NCBI RefSeq assembly: GCF_943913955.1
Contig: NZ_CALUAE010000021.1
Span: 8,787 to 72,786, forward strand
Source: Mycolicibacterium bacteremicum
Lineage (GTDB): Bacteria; Actinomycetota; Actinomycetes; Mycobacteriales; Mycobacteriaceae
DNA: 64,000 nucleotides
Direction of reading: 5' to 3'
The position numbers and the translations under genes were made by a program. A model generated the notes under the pieces. It had not been told where the DNA came from. It did not search any database and saw only the letters and a program-made list of their open reading frames with translations. This document shows, piece by piece, positions 4,224-52,856 of the stretch. The stretch's first letter is position 1. Every line of letters starts with the position of its first letter.

Positions 4224-4426
4224 TGGTGCGGCCGCCCATTTCGGTGACCGCGATCCGTCTTGTTCCGCTTCATGACTCGACGCGCTCGATACCGACTCTG
4301 AGTACCCAACCTAGTGTGGAGAACACATCGCCGTGCGCGATGGAGTCACTCCGGGTGATCGGTGCAACATCTCATTGACCACAACCTGCCCCGCCACCCG
4401 CTCGGTTGTCGGTAGGGTGAACTGGC

Positions 4427-7021
4427 GTGAAAGCCCTGAGACGATTCACCGTCCGAGCCCACCTTCCGGAACGGCTTTCAGCACTGGAGCGGCTGTCGGT
4501 CAACCTGAGATGGTCGTGGCACACGCCGACCCAGAAGCTGTTCGCCGAGATCGACCCGCGGCTGTGGCAGCAGGTCCGCGCCGACCCGGTGGCCCTGCTG
4601 GGCGCGGTGAACCCGCAGCGCCTCGACGAGCTCGCCGCCGACGACGAGTTCACCCGGCAGGTCGACGCGTGTGCCGATGATCTGGACAACTACCTGAGCC
4701 GGCCGATGTGGTACCAGCAGCAGCTCGACGCCGGCCGGCAGTTCCCCAACGGCATCGCCTACTTCTCCATGGAGTTCGGCGTGGCCGAGGTGCTGCCCAA
4801 CTATTCCGGCGGTCTGGGCATCCTGGCCGGTGACCACCTGAAGTCCGCGTCGGATCTGGGCCTGCCGTTGATCGCGGTCGGTCTGTACTACCGGTCCGGG
4901 TACTTCCGGCAGTCGCTGACCGCCGACGGCTGGCAGCACGAGAACTACCCGTCGCTGGACCCGCAGGGCCTGCCGCTGCGGCTGCTCACCGACCACAGCG
5001 GGCAGCCGGTGCTGATCGATCTGGCGATGCCCGACGGGGCCCGGTTGTACGCCCAGGTGCTCGTCGCCCAGGTCGGCCGGGTTCCGCTACTGCTGCTCGA
5101 CTCCGATATCGGGGAGAACGAGCATGATCTGCGCGGGGTCACCGACCGGCTCTACGGTGGTGACCAGGAACACCGGATCAAGCAGGAGCTGCTGGCCGGT
5201 ATCGGCGGGGTCCGGGCCATCCGGGCCTTCACCGAGGTCGAGGGCCTGCCCGCACCCGAGGTGTTCCACATGAACGAGGGGCACGCCGGATTCCTGGGTG
5301 TGGAGCGCATCCGCGAGCTCATCGAGGCCGGGCTGGATTTCGACACCGCGCTGACCGTGGTCCGCTCGTCGACGGTGTTCACCACCCACACCCCGGTCCC
5401 GGCCGGGATCGACCGGTTCCCGGTGGAGATGGTGCGGCGCTACTTCGGCGGCACCGATCTGGCCTCCCGGCTGCTGCCCGGGGTTCCGCTGGAACGGGTG
5501 ATCGCCTTCGGGGCCGAAGAGGACGCGTCGAAGTTCAACATGGCGCACATGGGGTTGCGGCTCGCCCAGCGCGCCAACGGTGTCTCGCTGCTGCACGGTG
5601 AGGTCAGCCGGGAAATGTTCAACGGACTGTGGCAGGGCTTCGATCCGGCCGAGGTCCCGATCGGGTCGATCACCAACGGTGTGCATGCGCCCACTTGGGC
5701 GGCGCCGCAGTGGGTCGACCTGGCCCACGAGCTGATCGGGGACGACCTCGGTTCGCTCAGCGAGGCCGAGACGTGGCAGCGCCTGCAGCAGGTCGACCCG
5801 GGCCATCTGTGGTGGATCCGCTCCCAGCTGCGCTCGCTGCTGGTCGAGGATGTGCGCGCCCGGCTGCGTCGGTCATGGCTGGAACGCGGTGCGTCCGAGG
5901 CCGAACTCGGTTGGATTGCAACGGCGTTCGACCCCGAGGTGCTGACGGTGGGGTTCGCCCGGCGGGTGCCGACATACAAGCGGCTGACCCTCATGCTGCG
6001 TGACCCGCAGCGCCTGGAGCGGTTGCTCCTGGATCCCGACCGCCCGGTCCAGCTGATCGTCGCGGGTAAGTCGCATCCGGCCGATGACGGCGGCAAATCG
6101 CTGATCCAGCAGATCGTGCGGTTCGCCGACCGGCACGAGGTACGGCACCGGATCGCCTTCCTCCCCGACTACGACATGTCGATGGCCCGGTTGCTGTACT
6201 GGGGTTGCGATGTGTGGCTGAACAACCCGTTGCGCCCGCTGGAGGCCTGCGGTACGTCGGGTATGAAGAGCGCGCTCAACGGCGGGCTCAACCTGTCCAT
6301 CCGGGACGGATGGTGGGACGAGTGGTACGACGGCGAGAACGGGTGGGAGATCCCGACCGCCGACGGGCTGGCCGATGAGACCCGCCGCGATGACATCGAG
6401 GCCGGTGCCCTCTACGACCTGCTGGAGACCTCGGTGACGCCGCGGTTCTACGACCGCGACGAGCGCGGGGTGCCGGTGCGGTGGGTGGAGATGGTGCGCC
6501 ACACCCTGCAGGCGCTCGGCCCGAAGGTGCTGGCCTCCCGGATGGTGCGCGACTACACCGAGAAGTACTACGCGCCGGCGGCCATCTCGCTGCGCGCCAC
6601 GCTCGAACCCGACAACGACGATGTCCCGTTCGGGGCGGCGCGGCAACTGGCCGCCTACCGCAGGCGCGTCGAGCAGCAGTGGCCGCTGATCGAGATCACC
6701 GATGTCGACAGCTACGGGTTGCCGGACACCCCGCTGCTGGGCAGCGAACTCACCCTGACCGCCACCGTGGATCTGGCCGGACTGGCACCCGAAGAGGTTG
6801 TGGTGCAAGCGGTTCTGGGCCGTGTCGATGGTGGCGACAATCTGCGCGACCCGGTGACGGTGCCGATGGACCATACCGGTGGCGCCGACGGTGGGCGGCA
6901 GGTGTTCTCCACCACCACACCGCTGCCGGTGGCCGGCCCGGTCGGCTACACGGTGCGGGTGCTGCCGCACCATCGGTTGCTGGCCGGGGCGAACGAACTC
7001 GGGCTCGTCACGCTGGCATGA
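4427..7021 (+). CDS. glgP: alpha-glucan (glycogen) phosphorylase GlgP
   Basis: 864-aa ORF with the N-terminal RLSVNLRWSWH..LF motif of Rv1328-type GT35 glucan phosphorylases. Divergent from glgE, as in M. tuberculosis. Confidence 0.88.
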   Translation: MKALRRFTVRAHLPERLSALERLSVNLRWSWHTPTQKLFAEIDPRLWQQVRADPVALLGAVNPQRLDELAADDEFTRQVDACADDLDNYLSRPMWYQQQLDAGRQFPNGIAYFSMEFGVAEVLPNYSGGLGILAGDHLKSASDLGLPLIAVGLYYRSGYFRQSLTADGWQHENYPSLDPQGLPLRLLTDHSGQPVLIDLAMPDGARLYAQVLVAQVGRVPLLLLDSDIGENEHDLRGVTDRLYGGDQEHRIKQELLAGIGGVRAIRAFTEVEGLPAPEVFHMNEGHAGFLGVERIRELIEAGLDFDTALTVVRSSTVFTTHTPVPAGIDRFPVEMVRRYFGGTDLASRLLPGVPLERVIAFGAEEDASKFNMAHMGLRLAQRANGVSLLHGEVSREMFNGLWQGFDPAEVPIGSITNGVHAPTWAAPQWVDLAHELIGDDLGSLSEAETWQRLQQVDPGHLWWIRSQLRSLLVEDVRARLRRSWLERGASEAELGWIATAFDPEVLTVGFARRVPTYKRLTLMLRDPQRLERLLLDPDRPVQLIVAGKSHPADDGGKSLIQQIVRFADRHEVRHRIAFLPDYDMSMARLLYWGCDVWLNNPLRPLEACGTSGMKSALNGGLNLSIRDGWWDEWYDGENGWEIPTADGLADETRRDDIEAGALYDLLETSVTPRFYDRDERGVPVRWVEMVRHTLQALGPKVLASRMVRDYTEKYYAPAAISLRATLEPDNDDVPFGAARQLAAYRRRVEQQWPLIEITDVDSYGLPDTPLLGSELTLTATVDLAGLAPEEVVVQAVLGRVDGGDNLRDPVTVPMDHTGGADGGRQVFSTTTPLPVAGPVGYTVRVLPHHRLLAGANELGLVTLA

Positions 7022-7025
7022 TCAA

Positions 7026-7039
7026 CCCGGTTTTCCGGG
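7026..7039 (+). terminator. small hairpin CCCGG-TTTT-CCGGG immediately after the glgP stop codon
   Basis: Perfect 5-bp stem with a 4-nt loop 5 nt after TGA (7019-7021). No U-tract follows, so it is at best a weak terminator. Confidence 0.3.
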
Positions 7040-7040
7040 C

Positions 7041-7102
7041 GGCGAAACCCGCGTACCCGGGGTCGGGATTCGAGGTTTCACCCCCGGTACGCGAGTTTCG
7101 CC
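7041..7102. repeat. REP-like palindromic element, copy 1 (GGCGAAACCCGCGTACCCGGGGTC ... CCCCCGGTACGCGAGTTTCGCC)
   Basis: ~22-nt arms form a near-perfect inverted repeat around an ~18-nt loop. A second copy with the same arms lies at 20438-20499. Both are intergenic and produce the ...GETRVPGV.../...TRVSP... peptide signature in spurious ORFs of the track. Confidence 0.75.
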
Positions 7103-7124
7103 GAGCGTGGGGAGTGGGTGGCAG

Positions 7125-7988
7125 ATGAGCAGGATCACCGAGGTCGCGGTTCCCGGCGGTCCGTACGCGCTGGCGGCCGGCCCGGACCGGGCGATGTGGG
7201 TGACCTGCGTGCACAGCGGGCAGGTCGCCCGCGTCACCGATGCCGGTGAGCTCACGGTGTTCGACGTGGCGCCGGACAGCAGGCCGGAGATCATCGTCGC
7301 CGGACCCGACGGTGCACTGTGGTTCACCCGGAATGGTGACGACCGGCTCGGCCGCATCACCACGTCCGGCGTGCAGAGCGAGATCGAACTCGGTTCCGGC
7401 AGCGCACCTTTCGGGCTGTGCACGGGCCCGGACCGGGCGCTGTGGTTCACCACCATGACCTCGGGCATGGTCGGCAGGCTCGATCCGGCCGACGGGCGGA
7501 TCGAGCTGCACCCGGTCGGGGGTATGCCCGCGATGATCACCGCCGGTCCCGACGGTGCGCTCTGGTTCGCGATGAACCAGCGCAGCGCCATCGGACGGCT
7601 GGATCTGTCGGGAGAGCTGACCGTGCGCGAACTGCCCACCCGTGCCGCCGGCCCGGTCGGCATCACCGCCACCCACGACGACGCGGTCTGGTTCACCGAG
7701 ATCCTGGCCGACAAGCTCGGCCGGATCCCGACCGACGAGGCCATCCAGGAACTCGACCTACCCGGTAAGCCGCACGCCGTGGTGGCCGATCCGACCGGTG
7801 GGGTCTGGGTCAGCCTGTGGGGCGCGGACCAGATCGCGCGGGTGGACGCCGACGGCGACGTCGACACCATCGACCTGCCCGCCGGCAGTGAACCGCACGG
7901 GCTCGCGATCGCCGCGGACGGAGCGTTGTGGGTGGCGCTGGAGAGTGGACTGGAGCACGGCAGCGTGCTGCGCATCCCGCTGGGCTGA
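7125..7988 (+). CDS. virginiamycin B lyase (Vgb)-like beta-propeller protein
   Basis: ATG at 7125 is preceded by GGGGAG. Reiterated GPDGALWFT / GPDRALWFT / GPDGALWFA blades match the Vgb/streptogramin-lyase seven-bladed propeller. The ORF track merges it into 6879..7988 because there is no upstream stop. Confidence 0.7.
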   Translation: MSRITEVAVPGGPYALAAGPDRAMWVTCVHSGQVARVTDAGELTVFDVAPDSRPEIIVAGPDGALWFTRNGDDRLGRITTSGVQSEIELGSGSAPFGLCTGPDRALWFTTMTSGMVGRLDPADGRIELHPVGGMPAMITAGPDGALWFAMNQRSAIGRLDLSGELTVRELPTRAAGPVGITATHDDAVWFTEILADKLGRIPTDEAIQELDLPGKPHAVVADPTGGVWVSLWGADQIARVDADGDVDTIDLPAGSEPHGLAIAADGALWVALESGLEHGSVLRIPLG

Positions 7989-8058
7989 CCCGCGGGTCGG
8001 CACGGGCCGTGTCTTTGTCGTGGCCAGACGGTTATATAGGCGATGTAAGTTCCTCGAG

Positions 8059-8862
8059 GTGCCCAGAGATGGACGGCCCTTCGCCCTGCTCGCGGTGGTG
8101 ATGACCGCAGCGATCGCGTGCGCGCCCGGTGCGCCGGCGGACCCGGGCATCGACCCCGCCGAACCGGACGTCGACCCGGTGTTCGCGCCGGCCATCGACC
8201 CGGCCCTGGAGCCCCCGCTGACCCCTGTCGTCCAGCCCGCGGCGGTGGCGCTGCCGCCACCACCGGGTCCGCAACCGCACGGACTGGTGTTCTCGCCGCC
8301 GCCGGTGACCACCCGGACGCCGGACGGGTGGACGCTGACCCTGTCGGCGGCCGACGAGACCCAGCTGGTCAGAGCGCCGCTGACGACCGCGATATCGTCG
8401 CGCAACTACGTCGTCGGCGGCACGTTCCGGGGCAATATCACCGGACCGGCGGACGGGCCGGCGCCGGAGGGCGTCATGGAGGTCGGCTACCAGATCGGCT
8501 GCGGTATCGACATGAGCACCTCGAACGGTGTGACGCTGACCGGCACGGCGGGAATGTCCCCGTCGGTCGGGTTGGCCGGCGTCGATGTCGCCGATCCCGC
8601 ACTCGACGGTCTGGTGCCGGTGCTGACGACGCCCGTCACCGGTGGTGTGGCGGTCGGCCTCAAGCCGGGCATCATCAACATCGTGCCGGTGACCGAGAAG
8701 GAGTTCAGAGGCGCCGACCCATGGGTGTTGGTCAGCAACTTCCAGGTCAAGATCGACGGGTGCGTCGGACAGTCCTTCATCCGCTCGTACGCCTTCCTGA
8801 CCCGGTCCACCGACGAGTCCGACGCCGTGCTGGCCTACTACGGCGAGACGAAGGTGGTCTGA
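8059..8862 (+). CDS. MspA-family porin-like protein with proline-rich N-terminal extension
   Basis: The C-terminal ~180 aa resemble M. smegmatis MspA (LELGYQIG ~ MEVGYQIG, VSNAHGTVTGAAGG ~ TSNGVTLTGTAGM, C-terminal YGE). It has a signal-like N-terminus (RPFALLAVVMTAAIACAPGAPA) followed by a Pro/Ala-rich segment. The GTG start at 8059 is in frame with the track ORF 7642..8862, but the start is uncertain. Confidence 0.6.
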   Translation: MPRDGRPFALLAVVMTAAIACAPGAPADPGIDPAEPDVDPVFAPAIDPALEPPLTPVVQPAAVALPPPPGPQPHGLVFSPPPVTTRTPDGWTLTLSAADETQLVRAPLTTAISSRNYVVGGTFRGNITGPADGPAPEGVMEVGYQIGCGIDMSTSNGVTLTGTAGMSPSVGLAGVDVADPALDGLVPVLTTPVTGGVAVGLKPGIINIVPVTEKEFRGADPWVLVSNFQVKIDGCVGQSFIRSYAFLTRSTDESDAVLAYYGETKVV

Positions 8863-8875
8863 GGCCCGTCGGTGA

Positions 8876-10309
8876 TCAGGGGAACCGCTTGAAGCAGCGG
8901 TCGGACTCCCCGAGCACACCGACCCGGAAGGCGTCGATGCGGGAGAATCCCGACGGCACCGATTCGCCGTTGACATCGCTGGCGACCAGACCGTTGAGCA
9001 GGATCCCGGACACCGCCTCGTCCACATCCCCGGCGGTGAGCGCAATGGTGTTGCCGTCGGGGGTGTTCACCTCGTCGACGAGCTTGGCGGTGGCGACCCC
9101 GGTCAGGCAGGCGGTGCGCAGCGCCGCCTGCGCGGTGTCCAATTCCACGCCGCCGTGCTGTTGCTGGATCGACTGCATGTACCGCGACACCAGCACCGAA
9201 TACGCGGTGTTGTCCCCGGTGGCCAGGCCGGCGTCCTCGTCATCGGACTGGGCGCCCAACAGTTCCAGCGCAGGCAGATCCACCGCGATGGTGTTGGTGG
9301 CCGGGCAGAAGGCGGCCGGGGCGTCGGAGTCGGCGTCCGGGCAGTCCGGCTGATCGAAGGTGAGCGCGGGCGGGTCGGCCGGTTCGAACAGGATGTTCAT
9401 CGCGTCGACGACCGACCGCACCGAATCCTCGGTGATCTGCAGTTCGCCCGACTGATCCTCGGGCAACAACACCGGCAGATCACCGCGGCGCTGTTTGATC
9501 TCGGCGGGGTCGATCGCCGCGCAGGACGCCGCCCCGTCGGTGAACCCGAACTGGAACGCCGACACCCGCTCGAACGCCGAACCGTGCTCGTCCTCACCGG
9601 CTTCGGAGTCGTCGACGCTCAGCAGCGGGTCGCGGAACGCGATCATCGCACCCATCAGATTGTTCAACCCGTCACCGGTGGACAGCGTGAAACGCGGTGA
9701 GCTGCCCTCGGCGACCCAGCGCATGTACACCCCGGCCAGGCAGTCGGCCTGCTGTTCGGCCACCAGTGTCGGGGTGGACCGCGACACCAGCCCGGCCTGC
9801 TCCTGGATGGCATGCCCGTACTCATGTGCCATCACCATCGAGACGGCCATGTCGCCGTTGGCGCGCAACAGCGAGGGCAGCAACACGCCGCGGTCCCAGC
9901 CGATGGTCCTGTCATCGTGACAGAACGCGGCGTTGACCAGATTGTAGGTGTCACTCTCGCAGAAGACGCCGTCGAAACCGTCTGCGTCCCAAGAGATCAA
10001 CTCCGAGACCGGTTCGAACTCGCCGTCGAAGCTCGCCCCGTAGGACTGTTCCCAGAACTCCTCGATATCGCTGATCGCGCTGGCGGCGAGGTGGTCGATC
10101 TCGCCGCCGTCGGTGCCGGTGACATCACGGGTGGGTTCGGCTGCGTCGTCGCGCAGCCCGGTGGGCCCGTCGGTGGCGGGCATGCCGGCCACCCGGAACG
10201 GATCGGCGAACACCGACACCGCGCTGCCCTGGACCGGCTGCGCGCAGCCGCTGAGGAGCAGTGCCGCACAACCGGCCAGCACCGCACCCGGGATGAGCCG
10301 TCGCCCCAT
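8876..10309 (-). CDS. lipoprotein zinc metallopeptidase (HExxH), LpqM-like
   Basis: 477 aa with an N-terminal signal plus lipobox LLLSGC and the HEYGHAIQ zinc-binding motif. It is a paralog of the ORF at 30530..31978 (~50% identity by eye). Size and architecture match the mycobacterial LpqM lipoprotein peptidase family. Confidence 0.6.
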   Translation of the reverse strand: MGRRLIPGAVLAGCAALLLSGCAQPVQGSAVSVFADPFRVAGMPATDGPTGLRDDAAEPTRDVTGTDGGEIDHLAASAISDIEEFWEQSYGASFDGEFEPVSELISWDADGFDGVFCESDTYNLVNAAFCHDDRTIGWDRGVLLPSLLRANGDMAVSMVMAHEYGHAIQEQAGLVSRSTPTLVAEQQADCLAGVYMRWVAEGSSPRFTLSTGDGLNNLMGAMIAFRDPLLSVDDSEAGEDEHGSAFERVSAFQFGFTDGAASCAAIDPAEIKQRRGDLPVLLPEDQSGELQITEDSVRSVVDAMNILFEPADPPALTFDQPDCPDADSDAPAAFCPATNTIAVDLPALELLGAQSDDEDAGLATGDNTAYSVLVSRYMQSIQQQHGGVELDTAQAALRTACLTGVATAKLVDEVNTPDGNTIALTAGDVDEAVSGILLNGLVASDVNGESVPSGFSRIDAFRVGVLGESDRCFKRFP

Positions 10310-10368
10310 CTGCCCCGCCTTCCGGTGCGCCCGGGCGGGCCGCCACCTCGCTAGCAGAATAGTGAAAT

Positions 10369-12351
10369 TCAGCCGCCGCGCAGTCGAATGAGCGCGGCCT
10401 GCACCCGCTGCGGGTCGGTGGTCGCCCAGAACGGTGGCAGCGAGGCACGCAGGAATCCGCCGTAGCGGGCCGTGGCCATCCGGGAATCCAGGATCGCGAC
10501 CACGCCACGGTCGTCGACGCGGCGCAGCAGCCGGCCCGCGCCCTGGGACAGCAGCAGCGCCGCGTGGCTGGCGGCCACCGCCATGAACCCGTTGCCGCCG
10601 CGGGCGGCGATGGCGCGCTGCCGGGCGGTCAGCAGCGGATCATCGGGGCGCGGGAACGGAATCCGGTCGATGATCACCAGGGACAGCGTGGGACCCGGCA
10701 CGTCGACGCCCTGCCACAGCGACAGCGTGCCGAACAGCGAGGTCTCCTCGTCGTCGGCGAACTGCTTGACCAACGCGGCAGTGGTGTCCTGGCCTTGGCA
10801 CAGCACGGGTGTGGACAGCCGCTCGGCCATCACCTCGGCGGTGGCCCTGGCCGCGCGCATCGAGGAGAACAGGCCCAGGGTGCGCCCGCCCGCCGCGGTG
10901 ATGAGCGCCTCGGTCTCGTCGAGTTGGGCGGCCGACCCGCTGCCGTCACGACCGGGCGGCGGCAGATGCTTTGCCACGTAGAGGATTCCGGACTTGGCGT
11001 GGTCGAACGGTGAACCCACGTCGAGCCCCCGCCAGGTGTCGGCCGAGTCGCCGCCGGACAGGCCCCAGGCCGCGGCCATGGCGTCGAAGCTGCCACCCAG
11101 CGTCAGCGTCGCCGAGGTGAGCACGGCGGTGGCGCGGGCAAAGAGCCTGGTGCGCAACAGACCCGACACCGACAGCGGCGCCACCCGCAGGATGGCCCGC
11201 TTGCCCGCCGCCCCGCGGGTGTTCTCCTCGTGATCCAGCCACACCACATCGACGCGGTCGGGGATGGCGGGACCGAACGAGTCCAGCATGCGGGCGGCGA
11301 TATCGCCGATCTCGGTGACCGCGGTGACGGCCTCGGTGCGTGCCGCGGCGGCCTGCGGGTCCGACGGCGTGGTGTCGATGGCCGACCGGATCACGAATGC
11401 GGCATCGCGCAGCGCGGTCAGATAGGTGGCCAGTTCGTCGTCGAGGTGGTCGATGCGGCCGGGTTCGGCGTCGTAGATGGCCGAGGCCAGGTTCGCCCCG
11501 GCCGCCTCGAAGCGCTCGACGAGTTCGTCGGCCACCAACCGGCCGATCCGCCGCTGGGCGGCGCCCAGCGCGGTGGCCGACAGCTCACCGGTGGCGACGC
11601 CGGTGACCCGGTCGGCGAGTTCGTGCGCCTCGTCGACGACCAGCAGTTCGTGTTCGGGAAGCACCGACGCGTCGGCGATGGCATCGATGGCCAGCAGCGC
11701 GTGGTTGGTCACCACGACATCGGCGGTACCCGCCTTGGCGCGTGCCTTCTCCGAGTAGCAGTCGGCGCTGTAGGGGCACCGCGACACCCCGATGCACTCG
11801 CGGGCCGACACGCTGACCTGGCTCCAGGACCGGTCCGGCACGCCCGGGGTCAGCTCGTCGCGGTCACCGGTGTCGGTGTCCGAGGCCCAGGCGGTCAACC
11901 GCTGCACATCGCGGCCCAGGGCGGTCGCGGCGACCGCGTCGAACAACTCCTCCTGCGGCAGCTCCTCGGCATCGGCGGCGCCGTTGTGGATCTTGTTCAG
12001 GCACAGATAGTTCCCGCGCCCCTTGAGCAGGGCGAAGGTGGGCTTGCGCGGTAACCGCGGGGTCAGCGCGTCGGCCAGTCGCGGCAGGTCGCGGTCGACG
12101 AGCTGGCGTTGCAGCGCGATGGTGGCGGTGGAGACCACCACGGGCTGGCCGGCCGCGACCGCGCGGGCGATCGCGGGCACCAGGTAGGCCAGCGACTTGC
12201 CGGTGCCGGTGCCGGCCTGCACGGCCAGGTGCCTGCCGGTCTCGAATGCCTCGGTGACGGCCTCGGCCATCTGCACCTGCCCGGGCCGCTGAGCACCACC
12301 GAGGGCGTCGACCGCTCCGGCCAGCAGCTCGGTGACGGGAACGTCGGTCAC
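10369..12351 (-). CDS. dinG: ATP-dependent DNA helicase DinG
   Basis: 660 aa with Walker A AGTGTGKSLAYL, a DEAH-like VVDEAHEL box and an Fe-S Cys cluster (CIGVSRCPYSADC). Occupies the Rv1329c position. Confidence 0.85.
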   Translation of the reverse strand: MTDVPVTELLAGAVDALGGAQRPGQVQMAEAVTEAFETGRHLAVQAGTGTGKSLAYLVPAIARAVAAGQPVVVSTATIALQRQLVDRDLPRLADALTPRLPRKPTFALLKGRGNYLCLNKIHNGAADAEELPQEELFDAVAATALGRDVQRLTAWASDTDTGDRDELTPGVPDRSWSQVSVSARECIGVSRCPYSADCYSEKARAKAGTADVVVTNHALLAIDAIADASVLPEHELLVVDEAHELADRVTGVATGELSATALGAAQRRIGRLVADELVERFEAAGANLASAIYDAEPGRIDHLDDELATYLTALRDAAFVIRSAIDTTPSDPQAAAARTEAVTAVTEIGDIAARMLDSFGPAIPDRVDVVWLDHEENTRGAAGKRAILRVAPLSVSGLLRTRLFARATAVLTSATLTLGGSFDAMAAAWGLSGGDSADTWRGLDVGSPFDHAKSGILYVAKHLPPPGRDGSGSAAQLDETEALITAAGGRTLGLFSSMRAARATAEVMAERLSTPVLCQGQDTTAALVKQFADDEETSLFGTLSLWQGVDVPGPTLSLVIIDRIPFPRPDDPLLTARQRAIAARGGNGFMAVAASHAALLLSQGAGRLLRRVDDRGVVAILDSRMATARYGGFLRASLPPFWATTDPQRVQAALIRLRGG

Positions 12352-13679
12352 GTCGCGGCGACCACCCGGGTGGGCACGGCCGGTTCACCCCTGGAGAGCT
12401 TCAGCCCGTCCCAGGGCAGGCTGGTCAGCCCGGCCGCCATCAGGGTGCGGGCCGCCTGCAGATCGGGCACGGCGACCGGTTCGCCGCCGCGCACCAGCGG
12501 GACACTCAACGGCCGGGCGGTCAGGCCGGGCTCGATGTCGGGCCGGTGGCCGGCGGGAAAGACGACCTCTTCGATGACGGTTCCCGACGGTTTGGCCACC
12601 CGCACCGACTCCTTGGCCCCGCCCTGGGATCCCTTCTGCGCACTGCGCTTCTGCACTGGGACGCCGTCGACCTCGACGAGCTTGTAGACCATTCCGGCGG
12701 TCGGCGCCCCGGAACCGGTGACCAGCGAGGTGCCCACGCCGTAGCTGTCCACCGGCTCGGCCCGCAACGCGGCGATGGCGAACTCGTCGAGATCACCGGA
12801 CACCACGATGCGGGTGCCGTGGGCGCCGAGGTCGTCGAGCTGGCGACGGACCTGGCCGGCGAGCACCCCGAGGTCACCGGAGTCGATGCGCACCGCGCCC
12901 AGCTCGGGTCCGGCGACCGCGATGGCGTTGGCCACCCCGGCGGTGATGTCGTAGGTGTCCACCAGCAGGGTGGTCCCCACGCCGAGCGCGTCGACCTGCG
13001 CGGCGAAGGCCGTGCGCTCGGACCGGTCCTGCGCGGCGCGGTCCGCGGTGCCGCCCGGTCCGGTGTGCAGCAGCGTGAAGGCATGGGCGCTGGTGCCCAG
13101 GGCGGGCACGCCGTGGCGGTGTTGGGCGGCCAGGTTCGAGCTGCCGTCGAAGCCGGCGATCCAGGCGGCGCGGGCCGCGGCGACGGCGGCCTGCTCGTGG
13201 GTGCGCCGCGAACCCATCTCGATGAGCTGGCGACCGCTCGCCGCCGAGACCATCCGGGCCGCGGCGGAGGCGATCGCACAGTCGTGGTTGAGCACCGAGA
13301 GTGCCAGCGTCTCCAGGATGACGCACTCGGCGAAGCTGCCGCGCACCGAGAGCACCGGCGAGTTGGGGAAGTACAGCTCACCCTCGGGGTAGCCGTCGAT
13401 ATCCCCGCTGAACCGGAAGCCCGCCAGGAACCCGCGGGTGTCCGCATCGAGGAAGTCCGCGACGGTCGCCAGGGCGTCCTCGTCGAACGTGAAGTGCGCC
13501 AGCGCATCCACGAAGCGCCCGGTACCGGCGACCACCCCGTAGCGGCGGCCGTCGGGCAGCCGGCGGGCGAACACCTCGAAGGTGCAGCGGCGCTGCGCCG
13601 ACCCGTCGCGCAGCGCCGCGGCGAGCATGGTCAGCTCGTACTTGTCGGTCAGCAGCGCGGTGCTCACGGGGTCGTTCAC
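12348..13679 (-). CDS. pncB: nicotinate phosphoribosyltransferase PncB
   Basis: 443 aa. The N-terminus [10 protein letters not shown] is typical of NAPRTase. Occupies the Rv1330c position and overlaps the dinG start by 4 nt. Confidence 0.85.
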
Positions 13680-13744
13680 GTCCCCAACCGTATCGGTCCG
13701 GTTCCGATTCGGGCGCGAAGTCGCACCCCGGTAGTCTGTCGGGC

Positions 13745-14047
13745 ATGGTTACCCCAGCGCGGACTCGGCCGGGTACCCGTGAGGACGAGGCCACCGAGAG
13801 TCGCGATGCGACCGACAGCCCCTGGGTGACGATCGTGTGGGACGACCCGGTGAACCTGATGTCCTATGTGACCTATGTGTTCCAGAAGCTGTTCGGCTAC
13901 TCCGAACCGCACGCCACCAAGCTGATGATGCAGGTGCACACCGAGGGCAAGGCCGTGGTGTCCGCGGGCAGCCGGGAGTCGATGGAGGTCGACGTCACCA
14001 AGCTGCACTCGGCGGGGCTGTGGGCGACCATGCAGCAGGACCGCTGA
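13745..14047 (+). CDS. clpS: ATP-dependent Clp protease adaptor ClpS
   Basis: 100 aa with [26 protein letters not shown], the canonical ClpS core. Confidence 0.9.
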
Positions 14048-14050
14048 CAC

Positions 14051-14635
14051 GTGCGCAAATGGAAACGTGTCGAGGGCGCCGACGGCCCGCGATTCCGGTC
14101 CTCGCTGGCCGCGCACGAGGCGGACCTGCTGCGTAATCTGGTCAGCTCGCTGACAGGGATGCTCGAGGACCGCGAATCTGCCGCTCCGACCGATGAACTC
14201 AGTGAACTCACCGGCATCCGGACCGGCCATTCGGCACCGCCCGAGGACGAGACGATGAAGCGGTTGTTGCCCGACTTCTACCGGGCCCGCACCGAGCACC
14301 CGGCGGGCTCGTCGGCCGCCGACAGTCTCAACAGCGCACTGCGCAGCCTGCACGAACCGGCCATCATCGACGCGAAACGCCAAGCTGCGCAGCGTCTTCT
14401 GGACACGCTGCCCGACGGCGGCGGGAAGTTCGAGCTGTCCGAGGACGATGCGCAGGCGTGGGCGTCGTCGGTCAACGATGTGCGGCTGGCGTTGGGCACC
14501 ATGCTGGAGATCGGTCCCGGCGGGCTGGACCAGCTGCCGGTCGGCCACCCGATGGCCGGTCACCTGGACGTCTACCAGTGGCTGACCGTGCTGCAGGAGT
14601 ACCTCGTGCTGGGCCTGCTGGGGCAGAACCGATGA
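14051..14635 (+). CDS. DUF2017 domain protein (Rv1332 homolog)
   Basis: 194 aa. Conserved partner immediately downstream of clpS in mycobacteria. Confidence 0.6.
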   Translation: MRKWKRVEGADGPRFRSSLAAHEADLLRNLVSSLTGMLEDRESAAPTDELSELTGIRTGHSAPPEDETMKRLLPDFYRARTEHPAGSSAADSLNSALRSLHEPAIIDAKRQAAQRLLDTLPDGGGKFELSEDDAQAWASSVNDVRLALGTMLEIGPGGLDQLPVGHPMAGHLDVYQWLTVLQEYLVLGLLGQNR

Positions 14636-15693
14636 CCGACGTCGGCGCCATCACCGATGTCGCCGGTATCCGCGTCGGGCATCATCACCGCATCGACGAC
14701 GATGTCACCCTCGGCTCGGGCTGGGCAGCGGGCAGCACCGTCGTACTGGCCCCGGCGGGCACCGTCGGCGCGGTCGACTGCCGCGGCGGCGCGCCGGGCA
14801 GCCGCGAGACCGATCTGCTCGATCCCGCCAACAGCGTGCGCCATGTGGATGCGGTGCTGCTCACCGGTGGGAGTGCCTACGGACTGGCCGCGGCCGACGG
14901 CGTGATGACCTGGCTGGAGGAGCAGGGCCGCGGTGTCGCGATGGACGGCGGGGAGGTACCGATCGTTCCGGGTGCGGTCATCTTCGATCTGCCGGTGGGC
15001 GGCTGGGGTTGCCGGCCGACCGCCGAGTTCGGTTATGCCGCCGTGCAATCCGCGGCGGACTCCGGTGACAGGGTCGCGGTCGGCAACGTCGGCGCCGGCG
15101 CGGGTGCGCGCGCCGGCGTGCTCAAGGGCGGGCTGGGCACCGCCTCGATCCGGCTGCCCGAGCTGGGGGTCACCGTGGGCGCCGTCGTCGCGGTCAACTC
15201 CGGGGGCAATGTCATCGACCCGGCCACCGGCCTGCCGTGGATGGCCGACCTGATCACCCGGTTCGGCCTGAGCGCCCCACCGGCCGAGCAGATCGCCGAG
15301 TTCGCGGCGCTGGACAAGAAGAGCGGCCCGCTGAACACCACCATCGCCGTCGTCGCCACCGATGCCGCGGTGAGTCCGGCGGGCTGCCGACGCATCGCGA
15401 TCGCCGCCCAGGACGGTTTGGCACATGCCATCCGGCCCGCCCACACCCCGGTCGACGGTGACACCGTCTTCGCGCTGGCCACCGGCGCGGTGCAGGTGGC
15501 GCCGTCGGAGAAGGTGCCCACCGCGATGTCGCCGGAGACCGCACTGGTGACCGCGCTCGGTGCCGCCGCGGCCGACTGCCTGGCCCGCGCGGTCCTGGTC
15601 GGAGTGCTGGCCGCCGAGTCGGTCGCCGGAATACCTACCTATCGTGACCTGTTGCCCGGAGCGTTCGCATCTGCAAGAGAGACGGAGTCCTGA
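14632..15693 (+). CDS. peptidase S58 DmpA/L-aminopeptidase family hydrolase (Rv1333-like)
   Basis: ATG at 14632 overlaps the preceding stop (ATGA). Gly-rich DmpA/ArgJ-like fold motifs are present (GIRVGHH, AVLLTGGSAYGL, NVGAGAGA). The track ORF 14458..15693 extends spuriously upstream. Confidence 0.7.
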   Translation: MTDVGAITDVAGIRVGHHHRIDDDVTLGSGWAAGSTVVLAPAGTVGAVDCRGGAPGSRETDLLDPANSVRHVDAVLLTGGSAYGLAAADGVMTWLEEQGRGVAMDGGEVPIVPGAVIFDLPVGGWGCRPTAEFGYAAVQSAADSGDRVAVGNVGAGAGARAGVLKGGLGTASIRLPELGVTVGAVVAVNSGGNVIDPATGLPWMADLITRFGLSAPPAEQIAEFAALDKKSGPLNTTIAVVATDAAVSPAGCRRIAIAAQDGLAHAIRPAHTPVDGDTVFALATGAVQVAPSEKVPTAMSPETALVTALGAAAADCLARAVLVGVLAAESVAGIPTYRDLLPGAFASARETES

Positions 15694-15694
15694 C

Positions 15695-17378
<1,684 letters not shown>

Positions 17379-17388
17379 GGCATCGGCG

Positions 17389-18048
17389 ATGAACCACCCC
17401 GTCACACCCGAGTCGAAGCAGAAGCCGGCGTGGGTGGTCGGCGGCATCACCATCGTCGGTTTCGTGGCGCTGCTCTACGTCATGGAGATCGTCGACACCG
17501 TCCTGGGGCACCGTCTCGACCAGGATGGCATCCGCCCGCTGGAGACCGACGGGCTGTGGGGAATCCTGTGGGCGCCGCTGCTGCACGGCGGGTGGCCGCA
17601 CCTGATCGCCAACACCGTGCCCGCCCTGGTGCTCGGCTTCCTGATGACGTTGGCCGGGATGGGGCGATTCCTCGGCGCCACCGCGATCATCTGGCTGCTC
17701 GGCGGGTTCGGCACCTGGCTGATCGGCAACATCGGCGCGCACTGCCCCTATGTGGGCGTGCAGTGCACCACCAACCACATCGGGGCCTCGGGACTGATCT
17801 TCGGCTGGCTGACCTTCCTGATCGTGTTCGGGTTCTTCACCCGAACCGCCTGGGAGATCGTGGTGGGGGTCATCGTCGCCCTGGTCTACGGCGGCATCCT
17901 GTTCGGCGTGCTGCCCGGAGCGCCGGGCGTCTCGTGGCAGGGTCACCTGTCCGGCGCGATCGCCGGGTTGATCGCGGCGTATGTGCTGTCCGGTCCGGAG
18001 CGCAAGGCCCGCGAACGGCGCACCAGCCCGCCCGCGCTGCGCTACTGA
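17389..18048 (+). CDS. rhomboid-family intramembrane protease
   Basis: Six predicted TM helices. The GASG catalytic serine motif (GASGLIFGW) and a later His (GHLSGAIAG) are present. Occupies the Rv1337 position. Confidence 0.75.
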   Translation: MNHPVTPESKQKPAWVVGGITIVGFVALLYVMEIVDTVLGHRLDQDGIRPLETDGLWGILWAPLLHGGWPHLIANTVPALVLGFLMTLAGMGRFLGATAIIWLLGGFGTWLIGNIGAHCPYVGVQCTTNHIGASGLIFGWLTFLIVFGFFTRTAWEIVVGVIVALVYGGILFGVLPGAPGVSWQGHLSGAIAGLIAAYVLSGPERKARERRTSPPALRY

Positions 18049-18155
18049 GCGCCGTGTGCTGTTGTGACGTCGACCCAGCGGGGTGGCGCCATGCCGTCTG
18101 CGCCGCGCCGGCGCGGATGCGGGGCGCGCGTCACGGTGCGGACACAAAATGAAAC

Positions 18156-18983
18156 TTGTCGCTCAATGCGGTCATGCTTTCGTCGCTGTGCTGGCGGACG
18201 TGGCAAGCTAGTGATGTGCGAATCACCGTACTGGGATGTTCCGGCAGTGTTGTCGGCCCCGATTCGCCCGCGTCCGGATATCTGCTGACCGAGCCCGACA
18301 CCGTGCCGATGGTCCTGGACTTCGGCGGCGGGGTGCTCGGCGCGCTGCAACGCCACGCCGACCCCGGCTCGGTCAACGTGCTGCTCTCGCACCTGCACGC
18401 CGATCACTGTCTGGATCTGCCCGGCCTGTTCGTCTGGCGCCGGTATCACCCGAACCCGCCCGAGGGCCGCGCCATGCTGTTCGGTCCGACGCACACCTGG
18501 GAACGGCTGGGCGCCGCGTCGTCGCCGGAGGGCGGCGAGATCGACGATGTCACCGACATCTTCGACATCCAGCCCTGGGTCGACGGACAGGCGGTGCGCC
18601 TGGGCGCGCTGACCGTCGAGCCCCGGCTCGTGTGCCACCCGACCGAGTCCTACGGCATGCGCTTCACCGACCGCGACGGCGTGACGTTCGCCTACAGCGG
18701 GGACACCGGGATCTGTGATGCGGTGGTCGAATTGGCCCGCGGTGTCGACGTGTTCCTGTGCGAGGCCTCCTGGACGCACTCGCCGGAACGCCCGCCGAAC
18801 CTGCATCTGTCCGGTACCGAGGCCGGTCAGATCGCGGCGCGCGCCGGTGTCGGCGAACTGCTGCTGACCCATATCCCGCCGTGGACCTCGCGCGAGGACG
18901 TCATCAGTGAGGCCAAGGCGGAATTCGACGGTCCGGTGCACGCGGTGGTGTGCGGCGAGACCATCGATGTGACCCGCCACTGA
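18156..18983 (+). CDS. MBL-fold metallo-hydrolase (Rv1339 homolog)
   Basis: Contains HLHADHCLD (the HxHxDH motif) and matches Rv1339 along its length. The start is uncertain (ATG 18156 or GTG 18225). Confidence 0.75.
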   Translation: MSLNAVMLSSLCWRTWQASDVRITVLGCSGSVVGPDSPASGYLLTEPDTVPMVLDFGGGVLGALQRHADPGSVNVLLSHLHADHCLDLPGLFVWRRYHPNPPEGRAMLFGPTHTWERLGAASSPEGGEIDDVTDIFDIQPWVDGQAVRLGALTVEPRLVCHPTESYGMRFTDRDGVTFAYSGDTGICDAVVELARGVDVFLCEASWTHSPERPPNLHLSGTEAGQIAARAGVGELLLTHIPPWTSREDVISEAKAEFDGPVHAVVCGETIDVTRH

Positions 18984-19017
18984 GTTGGCTGTCGGGTTAC
19001 CGCGTTAGGGTTGGCCG

Positions 19018-19800
19018 GTGTCCAGACGAGAAGACGGCCGGCTTGACGACGAGCTGAGGCCAGTGGTCATCACCCGCGGATTCACCTCCCATCCCGCGGG
19101 TTCGGTCCTGGTGGAATTCGGCCAGACCCGGGTCATGTGCACCGCCTCGGTCACCGAGGGCGTGCCGCGCTGGCGTAAGGGGAGCGGTCAGGGGTGGCTC
19201 ACCGCCGAGTACGCGATGCTGCCGGCGGCCACCCACGAGCGCTCCGGGCGGGAGTCGGTCAAGGGCAAGGTGGGCGGACGCACCCAGGAGATCAGCCGAC
19301 TGGTCGGGCGCTCGCTGCGGGCGTGCATCGACCTCGGCGCGCTGGGGGAGAACACCATCGCCGTCGACTGCGATGTGCTGCAGGCCGACGGTGGCACCCG
19401 CACCGCCGCGATCACCGGCGCCTATGTCGCGCTGGCCGATGCCGTGACGTACCTGGCTGCGGCCGGCAAGCTCTCGGATCCGCGGCCGCTGTCCTGCGCC
19501 ATTGCCGCGGTGTCGGTCGGCGTGGTCGACGGCCGGGTGCGCCTGGACCTGCCTTACACCGAGGACTCCCGTGCCGAGGTCGACATGAACGTCGTCGCCA
19601 CCGACACCGGCACCCTGGTCGAGATCCAGGGCACCGGCGAGGGCGCCACGTTCCCGCGGTCGACGCTGGACAAGATGCTCGATGCCGCGCTGGCCGGTTG
19701 CGAGGAACTGTTCGCGATCCAGCGGGCGGCACTCGAGCTGCCGTATCCGGGCGTCCTGCCCGAGCCCACCGGGCCGGCCAAGAAGGCGTTCGGAAGCTGA
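19018..19800 (+). CDS. rph: ribonuclease PH
   Basis: 260 aa with the RNase PH signature region ([27 protein letters not shown]). Confidence 0.9.
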
Positions 19801-20396
19801 CCCGGTTACTGGTTGCCTCGCGCAACGCCAAGAAGCTGGCCGAGCTGCGCCGGGTGCTCGACGCGGCCGGAGTCTCCGGGCTGGAGCTGCTGTCGCTGAC
19901 GGATGTCCCCGAGTTCCCGGAGGCACCCGAGACGGGTGCCACCTTCGAGGAGAACGCGTTGGCCAAGGCGCGTGATGCCTTCGCCGCGACCGGATTGCCG
20001 TCGGTGGCCGACGATTCCGGGTTGGCCGTCGACGCGCTGAACGGGATGCCCGGGGTGCTGTCGGCGCGGTGGGCCGGTGCGCACGGCGATGACGAGGCGA
20101 ACCTGCACCTCCTGCTCGGGCAGTTGCGCGATGTCCCCGACGACCGGCGCGGTGCCGCCTTCGTGTCCGCGTGTGCGCTCGTCTCCGCGGCAGGGGAGAC
20201 CGTCGTGCGCGGCGAGTGGGCGGGCACGATCGCGCGGGCGCCGCGCGGGGAGGGCGGCTTCGGCTACGACCCGATCTTCGTGCCGACCGGATCGTCGCGG
20301 TCGGCGGCGGAGTTGTCGCCGGCGGAGAAGGATGCCGCCTCGCACCGCGGCCGGGCGCTCACGCTGCTGCTGCCCGCACTGCGCACGCTGGTCTGA
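19797..20396 (+). CDS. rdgB: dITP/XTP pyrophosphatase RdgB (Ham1 family); start codon uncertain
   Basis: [18 protein letters not shown] ... SHRGRA matches Rv1341. No ATG or GTG lies near the expected N-terminus; the frame reads ..[12 protein letters not shown] with CTG at 19797. Confidence 0.75.
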
Positions 20397-20437
20397 ATCC
20401 CCCCCCGGGACTCTCGCGCACTTCCGCGGGCTGCCCC

Positions 20438-20499
20438 GGCGAAACACGCGTACCGGGGGTCATTCCGCGGGCCCGAACCCCGGGTACGCGAGTTTCGCC
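20438..20499. repeat. REP-like palindromic element, copy 2 (GGCGAAACACGCGTACCGGGGGTC ... CCCCGGGTACGCGAGTTTCGCC)
   Basis: Shares the arm sequence with copy 1 at 7041-7102. Intergenic between rdgB and the MFS transporter, and flanked by C7/G5 runs. Confidence 0.75.
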
Positions 20500-20553
20500 C
20501 GGGGGTGAGGCGAGAGCGTGCGCCGGAATTTTGCATAGCGCAACTAACGTGTA

Positions 20554-22041
20554 ATGCTCGCGGGCGTGGTTTCCCCCGTTCAGCGGCGGCCGTCCCGGCG
20601 AGTCTCGGCGGCCCACCCCGGTGTGCTCATCGCCGTGCTGTGCGCTGCCGGAATCAGCGTCTCCCTGATGCAGACCTTGATGATCCCGCTGATCCCGGAA
20701 CTGCCAAAGCTGCTCGACGCCAGCGTTTCTGACGCATCCTGGGCGATCACCTCGACCCTGCTGACGGCCGCCGTCGCCACTCCGGTGTTCGGCAGGCTCG
20801 GCGACCTGTACGGCCCGAAACCCATCCTGATCGTGTGCGCGGTGGTGCTGATCGCCGGCTCGTCGATCGCGGCCGCGAGCTCGACGCTGATCCCGTTCGT
20901 CATCGGCCGCGGCATGCAGGGTGTGGGCATCCCGATCATCCCGCTGGGCATCAGCGTGCTGCGCGCATCGGTTCCCGCCGAGCGGGTGGGTGGTGCGATG
21001 GGACTGATGAGCTCCTCGCTGGGGGTGGGCGGCGCGCTCGGTCTGCCGTTGTCGGCGGCGATCGCCCAGCAGTTCTCCTGGCACGCGCTGTTCTGGTTCG
21101 CCGCGGGCCTCGGTGTGGTGCTGCTGATGCTGTTCGTCGTGCTGGTGCCGGCGGTCCCGGCCAGCTCGGCCGACCGGCTCGACCCGCTGGGGGCAGTACT
21201 GCTGGCCGGCGGGTTGGTGACCCTGCTGCTCGGCATCACCAAGGGCCGCGACTGGGGCTGGACATCCGGGCTGACCATCGGGATGTTCGCCTCCTCGGTG
21301 GCGGTCTTCGCCGTCTTCGTCGTCTGGCAACTGCGCTTCGACTCGCCGATCGTGGATCTGCGCACCTCGGCGCGGCCACCCGTGCTGATCACCAACATCG
21401 CCTCGGTGGGCGTCGGCTTCGCGATGTTCGCGCTGTCGCTGATCGCCCCGCAGGTGCTCGAACTGCCCGTCGAGACGGGTTACGGGCTGGGCATGTCGAT
21501 GCTGGAGGCCGGGCTGTGGATGGCTCCGGGCGGCCTGGCCATGATGGTGATGGCCCCGATCGCGGCGCGGGTGGCCGCAGCGCGCGGACCGCGTTTCACG
21601 TTGTTCGTCGGCTGCCTGGTGATCGCCGGGTCGTATCTGGCCGGGTTGTGGCTGCTGGGTGGCGGCCCGCAGGTGCTGATCTTCAACGTGCTGGTCAGCA
21701 TTGGGGTCGGCTTCGCCTATGCCTCGATGCCGGCGCTGATCAATGCCGCGGTCCCGATGTCGGAGACGGCCGCGGCCAACGGACTCAACGCGCTGGCCCG
21801 GTCGCTGGGCACGTCGATCTCCAGCGCGGTGATCGGCGCGATCTTGGCGGGGATGACGATGACGGCCGGCGGGCAGGAGGTGCCGACGCTGGACGGGTTC
21901 CGGGTGGCGTTGATCGTTGCCGCCGGGGTGGCCGCGGCATCGGCGGTCGGGGCATTGCTGATCCCGGCCGTGCGGCCGACCGAGGCGGTTACAGACCGAA
22001 ACGCTTCTTCACGTCTTGAGTCTGGAAGTGCTCGACGATGA
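20554..22041 (+). CDS. MFS transporter (drug:H+ antiporter-like, 14 TM)
   Basis: 495 aa, highly hydrophobic. Contains the MFS motif A region GRLGDLYGPKP. Confidence 0.75.
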   Translation: MLAGVVSPVQRRPSRRVSAAHPGVLIAVLCAAGISVSLMQTLMIPLIPELPKLLDASVSDASWAITSTLLTAAVATPVFGRLGDLYGPKPILIVCAVVLIAGSSIAAASSTLIPFVIGRGMQGVGIPIIPLGISVLRASVPAERVGGAMGLMSSSLGVGGALGLPLSAAIAQQFSWHALFWFAAGLGVVLLMLFVVLVPAVPASSADRLDPLGAVLLAGGLVTLLLGITKGRDWGWTSGLTIGMFASSVAVFAVFVVWQLRFDSPIVDLRTSARPPVLITNIASVGVGFAMFALSLIAPQVLELPVETGYGLGMSMLEAGLWMAPGGLAMMVMAPIAARVAAARGPRFTLFVGCLVIAGSYLAGLWLLGGGPQVLIFNVLVSIGVGFAYASMPALINAAVPMSETAAANGLNALARSLGTSISSAVIGAILAGMTMTAGGQEVPTLDGFRVALIVAAGVAAASAVGALLIPAVRPTEAVTDRNASSRLESGSARR

Positions 22042-23567: not shown

Positions 23568-23653
23568 GCGCGAGTGGCGAAATCAGGAATACGCGATGGC
23601 TTTAGGTGCCATTGTCTTCGGACGTGGGGGTTCGAGTCCCCCCTCGCGCACCA
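23568..23653 (+). tRNA. tRNA-Leu (anticodon TAG), type II with long variable arm
   Basis: Hand-folded: acceptor GCGCGAG/CTCGCGC, D-arm GCG-AAATCAGGAATA-CGC, anticodon stem ATGGC/GCCAT with loop TTTAGGT (UAG), variable arm, T-arm GGGGG-TTCGAGT-CCCCC, discriminator A, encoded CCA. Near-identical in layout to E. coli tRNA-Leu(UAG). Confidence 0.85.
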
Positions 23654-25866: not shown

Positions 25867-25939
25867 GCGATATCCGACGGAGCAGTCGTGCGGGTGACGC
25901 AGCAGTCTGCTGCGTCACCCGTCCGCGATATCAGACCCG

Positions 25940-38174: not shown

Positions 38175-38222
38175 TCCACCGGATCGCCCGATGGCTGCCC
38201 CCGACCCGGTCGGGGGCAGCCA

Positions 38223-52795: not shown

Positions 52796-52856
52796 CCTTT
52801 CTGTGCGATGTATGGCGTCTCACCCGTAATGAGTACGGGTGAGACGCCGCAAGTCG

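Follow-up and report, generated by a model that had tools for sequence, protein, structure and literature searches.

Two copies of a palindrome of 62 nucleotides (nt) stand in a 64,000-nt stretch of Mycolicibacterium bacteremicum DNA (contig NZ_CALUAE010000021.1; the whole stretch is called the window here), each next to a place where the gene order departs from that of Mycobacterium tuberculosis, and they raise the question of what this element is, whether it brought about the two departures and what it does where it stands. A sequence-only reading of the window had taken the pair for repeats resembling the repetitive extragenic palindromic (REP) elements of proteobacteria, sitting at the two synteny breaks, and had thought of a scar of recombination or insertion. 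We report that the two copies belong to a dispersed family of intergenic palindromes in a small Mycolicibacterium group and that both gene orders occur in relatives that lack the element. The reading that we favour, and think rather probable, is a 3'-end hairpin repeat akin to REP elements and to the mycobacterial TRIT palindromes, rarely mobile, with a putative role in RNA, which is also a hotspot for recombination and insertion.

The two palindromes and their repeat family

Both elements are present, each 62 nt long, and have the plan of palindromic arms and a loop that had been described for them; the arms measure 23 nt and the loop 16 nt, where about 22 nt and 16-18 nt had been estimated. 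The scores given are those of the covariance model R1 introduced below.

7041-7102, no strand assigned: copy 1; left arm 7041-7063, loop 7064-7079, right arm 7080-7102; 73 bits
20438-20499, no strand assigned: copy 2; left arm 20438-20460, loop 20461-20476, right arm 20477-20499; 75 bits

The arm consensus is GGCGAAAC-N-CGCGTACC-N-GGGGT with its reverse complement, enclosing a free 16-nt loop, and the pattern GGCGAAACNCGCGTACC has exactly four occurrences in the 64 kb, none with a mismatch, which are the left and right arms of the two elements. The longest inverted repeat of the window is this element pair (63 nt, 83% complementary). Pairing extends over 21 of the 23 arm positions in copies 1 and 2, with mismatches at 9/54 and 18/45 in both; the RNA folds of either strand reach -49.7 to -51.3 kcal/mol (z -2.9 to -5.7) and the DNA folds -23.1 and -24.6 kcal/mol (z -4.4 and -4.7). 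The peptides GETRVPGV and TRVSP, said to recur in spurious open reading frames (ORFs) on account of the element, were reproduced. Covariance model R1 was built from copies in other genomes together with the two window copies, so that their scores of 73-75 bits (E ~1e-20) are a match by construction; the next best match in the window, at 22 bits, is an unrelated palindrome at 52814-52848, and the window has no third family copy. That the window copies are no product of chance is supported, independently of the model, by the numerous copies in other genomes.

Those copies came from two scans, and they make the element a repeat rather than a peculiarity of two sites, as had been supposed. A scan with one arm fixed, made over one genome per species in 185,579 species genomes (the exact-arm scan), gave 36 loci, nearly all from M. 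frederiksbergense (two genomes), M. bacteremicum, Mycobacterium sp. Root265, Mycolicibacterium sp. P9-22 and two metagenome-assembled genomes (MAGs); a metagenome scan with only the arm cores fixed (positions 4-17 and 46-59) gave 31 further loci. The hosts are M. frederiksbergense, M. bacteremicum, M. diernhoferi, Root265, P9-22, Mycobacterium sp. NPDC003323 and soil metagenomes. Copy numbers and host range are lower bounds, because the GTCG subfamily, carried by M. diernhoferi, was missed by the first scan pattern. Exact-arm loci number at most 10 per genome (10 in M. frederiksbergense IN53), and the density of the family in this small Mycolicibacterium group is roughly 5-10 or more sites per genome. 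The element was not found in M. neoaurum, the consensus had no match in plasmid and phage collections, neither window element matched Rfam, whether at gathering thresholds or with E allowed to reach 5, and a literature search by element sequence returned primer matches only; the family appears to be previously undescribed.

Membership is sharply defined. Almost all copies are 62 nt long, with a few of 61, 64 or 52 nt, and members score 59-86 bits with R1 while almost everything else stays at or below 24 bits, the exceptions being a decaying copy at 43 bits (locus L083, 6025-6086; L numbers are our locus handles) and a half copy of M. bacteremicum (L003, 6730-6791), which lies upstream of a 349-amino-acid (aa) gene and has an intact right arm and, in place of the left one, AT-richer sequence (55% GC). 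In the exact-arm scan, the exceptions to the 62-nt type were this half copy, a second lone arm in a Gemmata MAG (L015), which is probably a chance match, and one copy split by an IS30-family element. A copy in M. frederiksbergense IN53 (L016, 6259-6352) holds a run of 10 N and a duplicated half-loop, an assembly gap inside the palindrome; such palindromes can break or confuse assemblies.

Gene ends around the copies were taken from our own simple gene caller, based on G+C at third codon positions (GC3), which gives back the genes called in the window. By it, every one of the 70 distinct copies is intergenic, and their overlap with coding sequence never exceeds 14 nt, the tolerance of the gene-call test. 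There are 28 copies in co-directional gaps (copies 1 and 2 are both in such gaps), 22 between convergent genes, 10 between divergent genes and 10 at contig edges. Where a stop codon faces the copy, its distance has a median of 10 nt and is at most 20 nt for 42 of 56 copies; the gene ends concerned include those of fusA-tuf, rph-rdgB, glgP and a gene of acyl-CoA-dehydrogenase-like type. The divergent copies are essentially one orthologous, conserved locus between a comF-like gene and a short-chain dehydrogenase/reductase (SDR) gene, about 45 nt from each start. A canonical intrinsic terminator would consist of a GC-rich hairpin and a U-tract; the hairpin is present, and a T-tract (at least 6 T in the 12 nt after the element) follows none of the 70 copies on either strand, nor did a terminator scan call the elements. 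Since the mycobacterial RNA polymerase needs a U-tract in vitro (PMC3993855), canonical intrinsic termination by the hairpin is unlikely on these sequences. At one locus (L032 4601-4640 and L035 5849-5888), a second hairpin, CCTTGACAATATTTTTTGTCAAGG, directly follows the element; its loop is T-rich and it has no T-rich trailing tail.

Constraint on the arms was estimated from orthologous sites. By flank comparison the genome copies fall into about 12-15 locus groups, most of which are common to several species, and the copies are therefore old. Between orthologous pairs the arms are 93.3% identical and the loops 72.1%, compared with 72.2% for the adjacent 20-nt non-coding flanks and 87.6% for 400-nt, mostly coding flanks; the arms are therefore constrained or homogenised and the loops are free. 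Hypermutation of the loops was considered and rejected, as they diverge like the flanks beside them. Two paralogous acyl-CoA-dehydrogenase-like genes, 77.5% identical in nucleotides, each keep a copy just 3' of the stop codon. Covariation was not significant among the exact-arm copies only, a set superseded by a less biased one of 58 distinct copies, in which the proposed maintenance of the stem by compensatory changes is clear in the inner stem: pair 20-43 is GC in 33, UA in 13 and UG in 3 copies, pair 21-42 is GC in 25 and CG in 9, and pair 23-40 is UA in 28, UG in 12 and CG in 8, while pair 18-45 is unpaired in 25 of 58. The covariation score of 0.096, against 0.056 +/- 0.006 in shuffles, was reached in 0 of 500 shuffles; it is to be read with the arm cores fixed by the search patterns and the subfamilies related to each other.

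Gene order in the window and insertions at copies in relatives

The neighbourhoods of the two copies hold the following features.

4427-7021, + strand: glgP (Pfam DUF3417 and Phosphorylase), stop codon 19 nt upstream of copy 1
7022-7124, + strand: derived insert that separates the stop codon of glgP from the start codon of vgb, made up of 19 nt, the element and 22 nt, with ATGA on both sides (7018-7021 and 7125-7128)
7125-7988, + strand: Vgb-lyase-family gene, vgb (Pfam Vgb_lyase, 326 bits), start codon 22 nt downstream of copy 1
about 8095-8862, + strand: MspA (Pfam)
8876-10309, - strand: Zn-peptidase (Pfam)
10369-12351, - strand: DinG (Pfam)
19018-19800, + strand: RNase PH (Pfam)
19797-20396, + strand: rdgB, Ham1 family (Pfam Ham1p_like), stop codon 41 nt upstream of copy 2
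20525-20560, + strand: conserved 36-nt motif GGAATTTTGCATAGCGCAACTAACGTGTAATGCTCG, between copy 2 and the coding region of the next gene, overlapping its called ATG at 20554
20554-22041, + strand: major facilitator superfamily (MFS) transporter (Pfam MFS_1), downstream of copy 2

The proposal that the elements caused the two synteny breaks fails, in that relatives without the element share both gene orders. The order glgP-vgb-mspA-peptidase-dinG is found in four lineages that have no element there (one of them, L080, without mspA), whose glgP is 94% identical to that of the window in M. neoaurum, 89% and 85% in two metagenomic or other lineages and 94% in L080. In all relatives examined rdgB is followed by the MFS gene; this holds for M. 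neoaurum too, whose rdgB-MFS site (L046) is without the element. Because the same orders exist in relatives without it, both gene insertions relative to M. tuberculosis predate the elements. Nor are these breaks the only ones: murI (Rv1338), to be expected from the H37Rv gene order between the rhomboid and the metallo-beta-lactamase genes, would make at least one further difference without an element, the rhomboid and metallo-beta-lactamase-fold genes of the window being separated by a 107-nt gap only (18049-18155). At the far end of the vgb-mspA-peptidase block, R1 found no second, degenerate copy in the window. For this window, then, the departures from the M. tuberculosis gene order are not accounted for by the elements. 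Within the block mspA itself is variable, as it is absent from the close relative L080, where (5592-7968) no MspA porin gene stands between the vgb and Zn-peptidase genes and no element is involved.

The same comparison bears on the origin of the copies. In three of the four element-free lineages glgP and vgb overlap by ATGA, the relatives reading ...CTGGCATGAGC...; the empty sites are L040 (M. neoaurum), L044 and L080, and in the fourth, L042, the two genes stand 19 nt apart with no element between them. Judged by these alleles, a derived insert of about 103 nt holds copy 1 and splits a former glgP/vgb ATGA stop/start overlap. Mycobacterium sp. NPDC003323 (L081) carries an element at this site too, between flanks that differ in length. 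In the vgb tree this strain groups with the window, while the glgP tree is ambiguous; since the vgb tree joins the two, the simplest reading is a single insertion in their common ancestor. Copy 2 has orthologues after rdgB in M. bacteremicum (L014), M. frederiksbergense (L047 and L034), Root265 (L048) and P9-22 (L033). The loop of the NPDC003323 glgP copy is identical to that of the window rdgB copy at 17 of 20 positions, against a background of 9-14 of 20, and for this reason copy 1 probably stems from the older copy 2, which lies at a distance of 13 kb. Exchange of sequence between loci is also indicated in the M. frederiksbergense group, where the loops of loci c2 and c4 are 19/20 identical, since the M. 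bacteremicum orthologues do not share a loop. The motif GGAATTTTGCATAGCGCAACTAACGTGTAATGCTCG is almost invariant in an alignment of six lineages, whether or not the element is present, and is probably promoter- or operator-like for the MFS transporter gene.

The idea of a recombination or insertion scar survives in another form: it does not apply to the two window breaks, but insertion points in relatives do fall at copies of the family. In M. frederiksbergense DSM 45364 (L034) a 1.3-kb IS30-family element interrupts the rdgB copy at the centre of its loop; the transposase (NF033563, 278 bits) and the own 25-nt terminal inverted repeats of this element are nested between the arms. The thought that the arms were the ends of a 1.4-kb insertion sequence was accordingly rejected, the terminal repeats of the IS30-family element lying inside the loop. 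In P9-22, two copies at the same locus, which belong to different subfamilies, enclose a 947-aa gene, and in DSM 45364 a 1.75-kb segment with a TetR and an acyltransferase gene stands between two copies (L021), with about 16 nt of flank duplicated on each side as well; four relatives with one copy lack the segment. Among structural variants of more than 300 bp in multi-species loci, 3 of about 6 lie at the element, a suggestive count, though from a small sample of loci chosen because they contain elements. The copies are preferred landing places for other DNA, a recombination and insertion hotspot.

Two kinds of feature in the window lie outside the 62-nt family. Other perfect hairpins occur at gene 3' ends, with R1 scores of at most 22 bits: the palindrome at 52814-52848, GGCGTCTCACCCGTAA-tga-GTACGGGTGAGACGCC, which lies in a convergent gap and has a 16-bp stem, and those at 38190-38224 (16-bp stem) and 25891-25921 (14-bp stem). 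A 242-aa ORF at 22754-23482 (- strand), next to a tRNA at 23568-23650, has a weak LAGLIDADG_3 match and a position that is conserved in relatives (L047).

Likeness to known repeats and possible function

The closest in kind are TRIT and the proteobacterial REP elements. TRIT palindromes (Gardner et al. 2011, PMC3152330) are likewise restricted to mycobacteria, palindromic, effectively bidirectional, strongly conserved in sequence and structure and tightly placed at gene termini, with no canonical U-tract, and a recognising factor is suspected for them; the 62-nt family too is confined to Mycobacterium sensu lato and is a palindrome conserved in sequence and structure. The differences are that TRIT is genus-wide, with about 147 copies in M. 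tuberculosis, whereas the 62-nt family occurs in few Mycolicibacterium species at low copy number, and that TRIT is centred at -8, overlapping the stop codon, whereas the 62-nt copies have their median at +10 nt after it (TRIT was compared by description only). A separate family of palindromes, GCGAGCAGACG...CGTCTGCTCGC, coexists in the same genomes, 55-58 nt long and with a variable inner stem:

L040 3439-3496, M. neoaurum: GCGAGCAGACG...CGTCTGCTCGC palindrome
L020 1530-1585, Root265: the same
L023 4052-4106, a MAG: the same

We take this palindrome to be the TRIT-like type of M. tuberculosis, an assumption to which the appearance of the 11-mer in several M. tuberculosis papers lends only weak support; if so, the 62-nt family is distinct from TRIT. 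The motif GCGAGCAGACGCAAAATCGCC, presumably also a motif of M. tuberculosis, is absent from the window, and a related palindrome exists in relatives. The copy in L023 abuts a 2.9-kb insertion relative to L024.

With REP elements and REPINs, which are associated with REP-associated tyrosine transposases (RAYTs; PMC2817692, PMC3116915, PMC3733652), the family has in common that it consists of extragenic palindromic repeats near 3' ends with a species-specific consensus; it is repeated, palindromic and strictly extragenic (70/70 copies). REP elements, too, are targets of insertion sequences (PMC1525189), and similar roles, in mRNA stabilisation and termination, have been proposed for them. The ends differ, as the arms begin with GGCG or GCCG and not with the GTAG or CGTC tetranucleotide of REP (PMC3733652), and so do the numbers, the exact-arm loci per genome (a lower bound) standing against more than 100 copies per genome (PMC2817692), or tens at most against hundreds. 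The unit is one 62-nt hairpin instead of units of 20-40 nt or their doublets, and no RAYT gene was identified among the palindrome-flanked genes, whole genomes not having been scanned for proteins.

As a REP/TRIT-like hairpin of 3' ends, the element would be transcribed from either strand, at the place where the upstream operon has its 3' end, and would fold into a very stable hairpin (~-50 kcal/mol), which may define or protect mRNA 3' ends and insulate the downstream gene, by blocking 3'-exonucleases or by assisting factor-dependent termination, and not by canonical intrinsic termination. The constant arm sequence suggests a protein that recognises the arms. New copies arise rarely. Mycobacteria have few canonical terminators but do have conserved 3'-end palindromes (TRIT), for which an unknown recognising factor has been proposed (PMC3152330), and 3' hairpins without a U-tract do not terminate their RNA polymerase in vitro, for which reason RNA stabilisation or 3'-end processing has been suggested (PMC3993855). 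Several points weigh against the proposal. The role in RNA is purely what we infer from the sequences, and the predicted TRITs of M. tuberculosis overlap only 2-4% of mapped termination sites (bioRxiv 10.1101/2022.06.01.494293). A role at 3' ends cannot explain the conserved copy between the divergent starts of the comF-like and SDR genes. The constancy of the arm cores is partly ascertainment, the arms having been fixed by the scan patterns, and a purely structural RNA role needs no invariant arm sequence. Decayed copies exist, such as those of L083 and L003, and gene conversion or concerted evolution could mimic purifying selection on the arms.

Next to this stands a purely selfish, non-autonomous mobile element, a MITE (miniature inverted-repeat transposable element) or REPIN-like, moved by a transposase encoded elsewhere and without host function, whose copies would adjoin stop codons only because insertions elsewhere are harmful; this is possible, with a chance that we put as minor. 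Like the Correia, ERIC and RUP elements, the repeat is short and non-coding, has arms like terminal inverted repeats (23 nt each in the 62-nt element), is polymorphic for insertion and would be able to change the transcriptional context of neighbouring genes. It is multi-copy and clade-limited, presence and absence vary at both window sites (empty glgP-vgb sites in L040, L044 and L080, empty rdgB-MFS site in L046), copy 1 is flanked by ATGA on both sides, and loops are shared between non-orthologous loci. Yet the ATGA repeats lie 19 and 22 nt from the arms, so that the inserted unit does not end at the arms, and the flank listing shows no direct repeats immediately beside them. Among the 185,579 species genomes of the exact-arm scan there was no parent insertion sequence with the same terminal repeats, that is, no element with the arms as termini and a transposase inside, the sole case of separated arms being the IS30-family element with its different terminal repeats. 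Unlike in a MITE, almost the whole element is inverted repeat and the arms are conserved in the long term at orthologous sites, at 93% identity against 72% in neutral DNA, and even paralogues of 77.5% identity both retain it; the low copy number and the absence of matches in plasmids and phages also tell against a selfish element.

We think it unlikely that the palindrome works as duplex DNA, as the binding site of a dimeric regulator, a nucleoid-associated protein or a topoisomerase acting on supercoiling or neighbouring promoters, in the way in which E. coli REP elements bind gyrase and integration host factor (IHF). Invariant arms, a fixed length of 62 nt and a free loop would suit such a site, as would the conserved copy in a divergent promoter region and the place of copy 2 just upstream of the promoter-like motif, but two half-sites do not require the covariation that keeps the arms complementary, the neighbouring genes are functionally unrelated, and most copies lie between convergent genes or at 3' ends.

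Palindrome-flanked inserts and a conceivable cassette system

That the palindromes are DNA-level recombination sites, at which cassettes of a gene and a palindrome would integrate into resident palindromes through a dedicated recombinase or nuclease, as with attC or REP-RAYT, we regard as highly doubtful. It draws on two independent derived insertions (those of P9-22 and DSM 45364), each bracketed by two full copies where the empty sites of relatives have one; on the different subfamilies of the two P9-22 copies, as expected if one came with the insert; on the 3 of about 6 structural variants at the element; and on an endonuclease-like gene between two palindromes whose type changes with the lineage. 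The integron attC sites are similar in being imperfect palindromes of about 60 nt at gene 3' ends with a variable centre and a recurrent unpaired position (here 18/45), and inserted genes are here bracketed by two sites. The ends GCGAAAC / GTTTCGC, however, do not fit the attC core sites RYYYAAC / GTTRRRY, and the copies are scattered singly, not in cassette arrays; no intI integrase lies next to the bracketed inserts, there is no attI site, and no integrase or recombinase adjoins any pair. The duplication in L021 takes in about 16 nt of flank per side, which homologous exchange fits better than a site-specific crossover, M. bacteremicum has dispersed copies of the family although palindromes of another type flank its endonuclease-like gene, and the events are few.

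The endonuclease-like gene encodes 272-282 aa with weak, sub-threshold matches to AbiEi_1 and REase_MTES_1575, lies in conserved surroundings and has a palindrome of about 60 nt on either side in every lineage examined (family A is the 62-nt family):

M. frederiksbergense group: flanked by family A, GGGG subfamily
M. diernhoferi: flanked by family A, GTCG subfamily
M. bacteremicum-like contig: flanked by palindrome type B
M. neoaurum-like contig: flanked by palindrome type C
Loci of the gene: L002 5822-6841, L082 2896-3927, L083 2865-3873 and L084 ~3399-4397

The proteins of the A- and B-flanked versions are 62% identical, compared with 79-91% for four neighbours, and types B and C were not seen elsewhere in a small sample from those species. 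With its two palindromes the gene resembles the RAYT genes flanked by cognate REPs, except that the only gene regularly flanked by two copies is this one and not a Y1 transposase. As a family-specific partner it was not established, since homologues of it occur widely in Mycolicibacterium and since in M. bacteremicum dispersed family-A copies go together with a gene whose flanking palindromes differ; we regard it as a lead rather than as a finding. By analogy one could conceive of the palindromes as cis sites of an undescribed mycobacterial system of cassette exchange or maintenance, whose partner protein, the small AbiEi_1/REase_MTES_1575-like one, along with which the palindrome type changes, would recognise or cut the hairpin or cruciform, keeping the arms constant and promoting the insertion of segments with a copy of their own; this is a speculation to which we give very little weight, and if true it would correspond in function to REP-RAYT or attC-IntI, with a different enzyme at its base.

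For the REP/TRIT-like hairpin repeat that we favour, the biology at stake is what defines mycobacterial mRNA 3' ends. The family is small, sharply defined and polymorphic, and the natural paired alleles with and without the element at glgP-vgb and at rdgB-MFS lend themselves to testing the effect of a palindrome on transcripts. As landing sites of insertion sequences and gene segments, such repeats also matter for the reading of synteny breaks and for the quality of assemblies.

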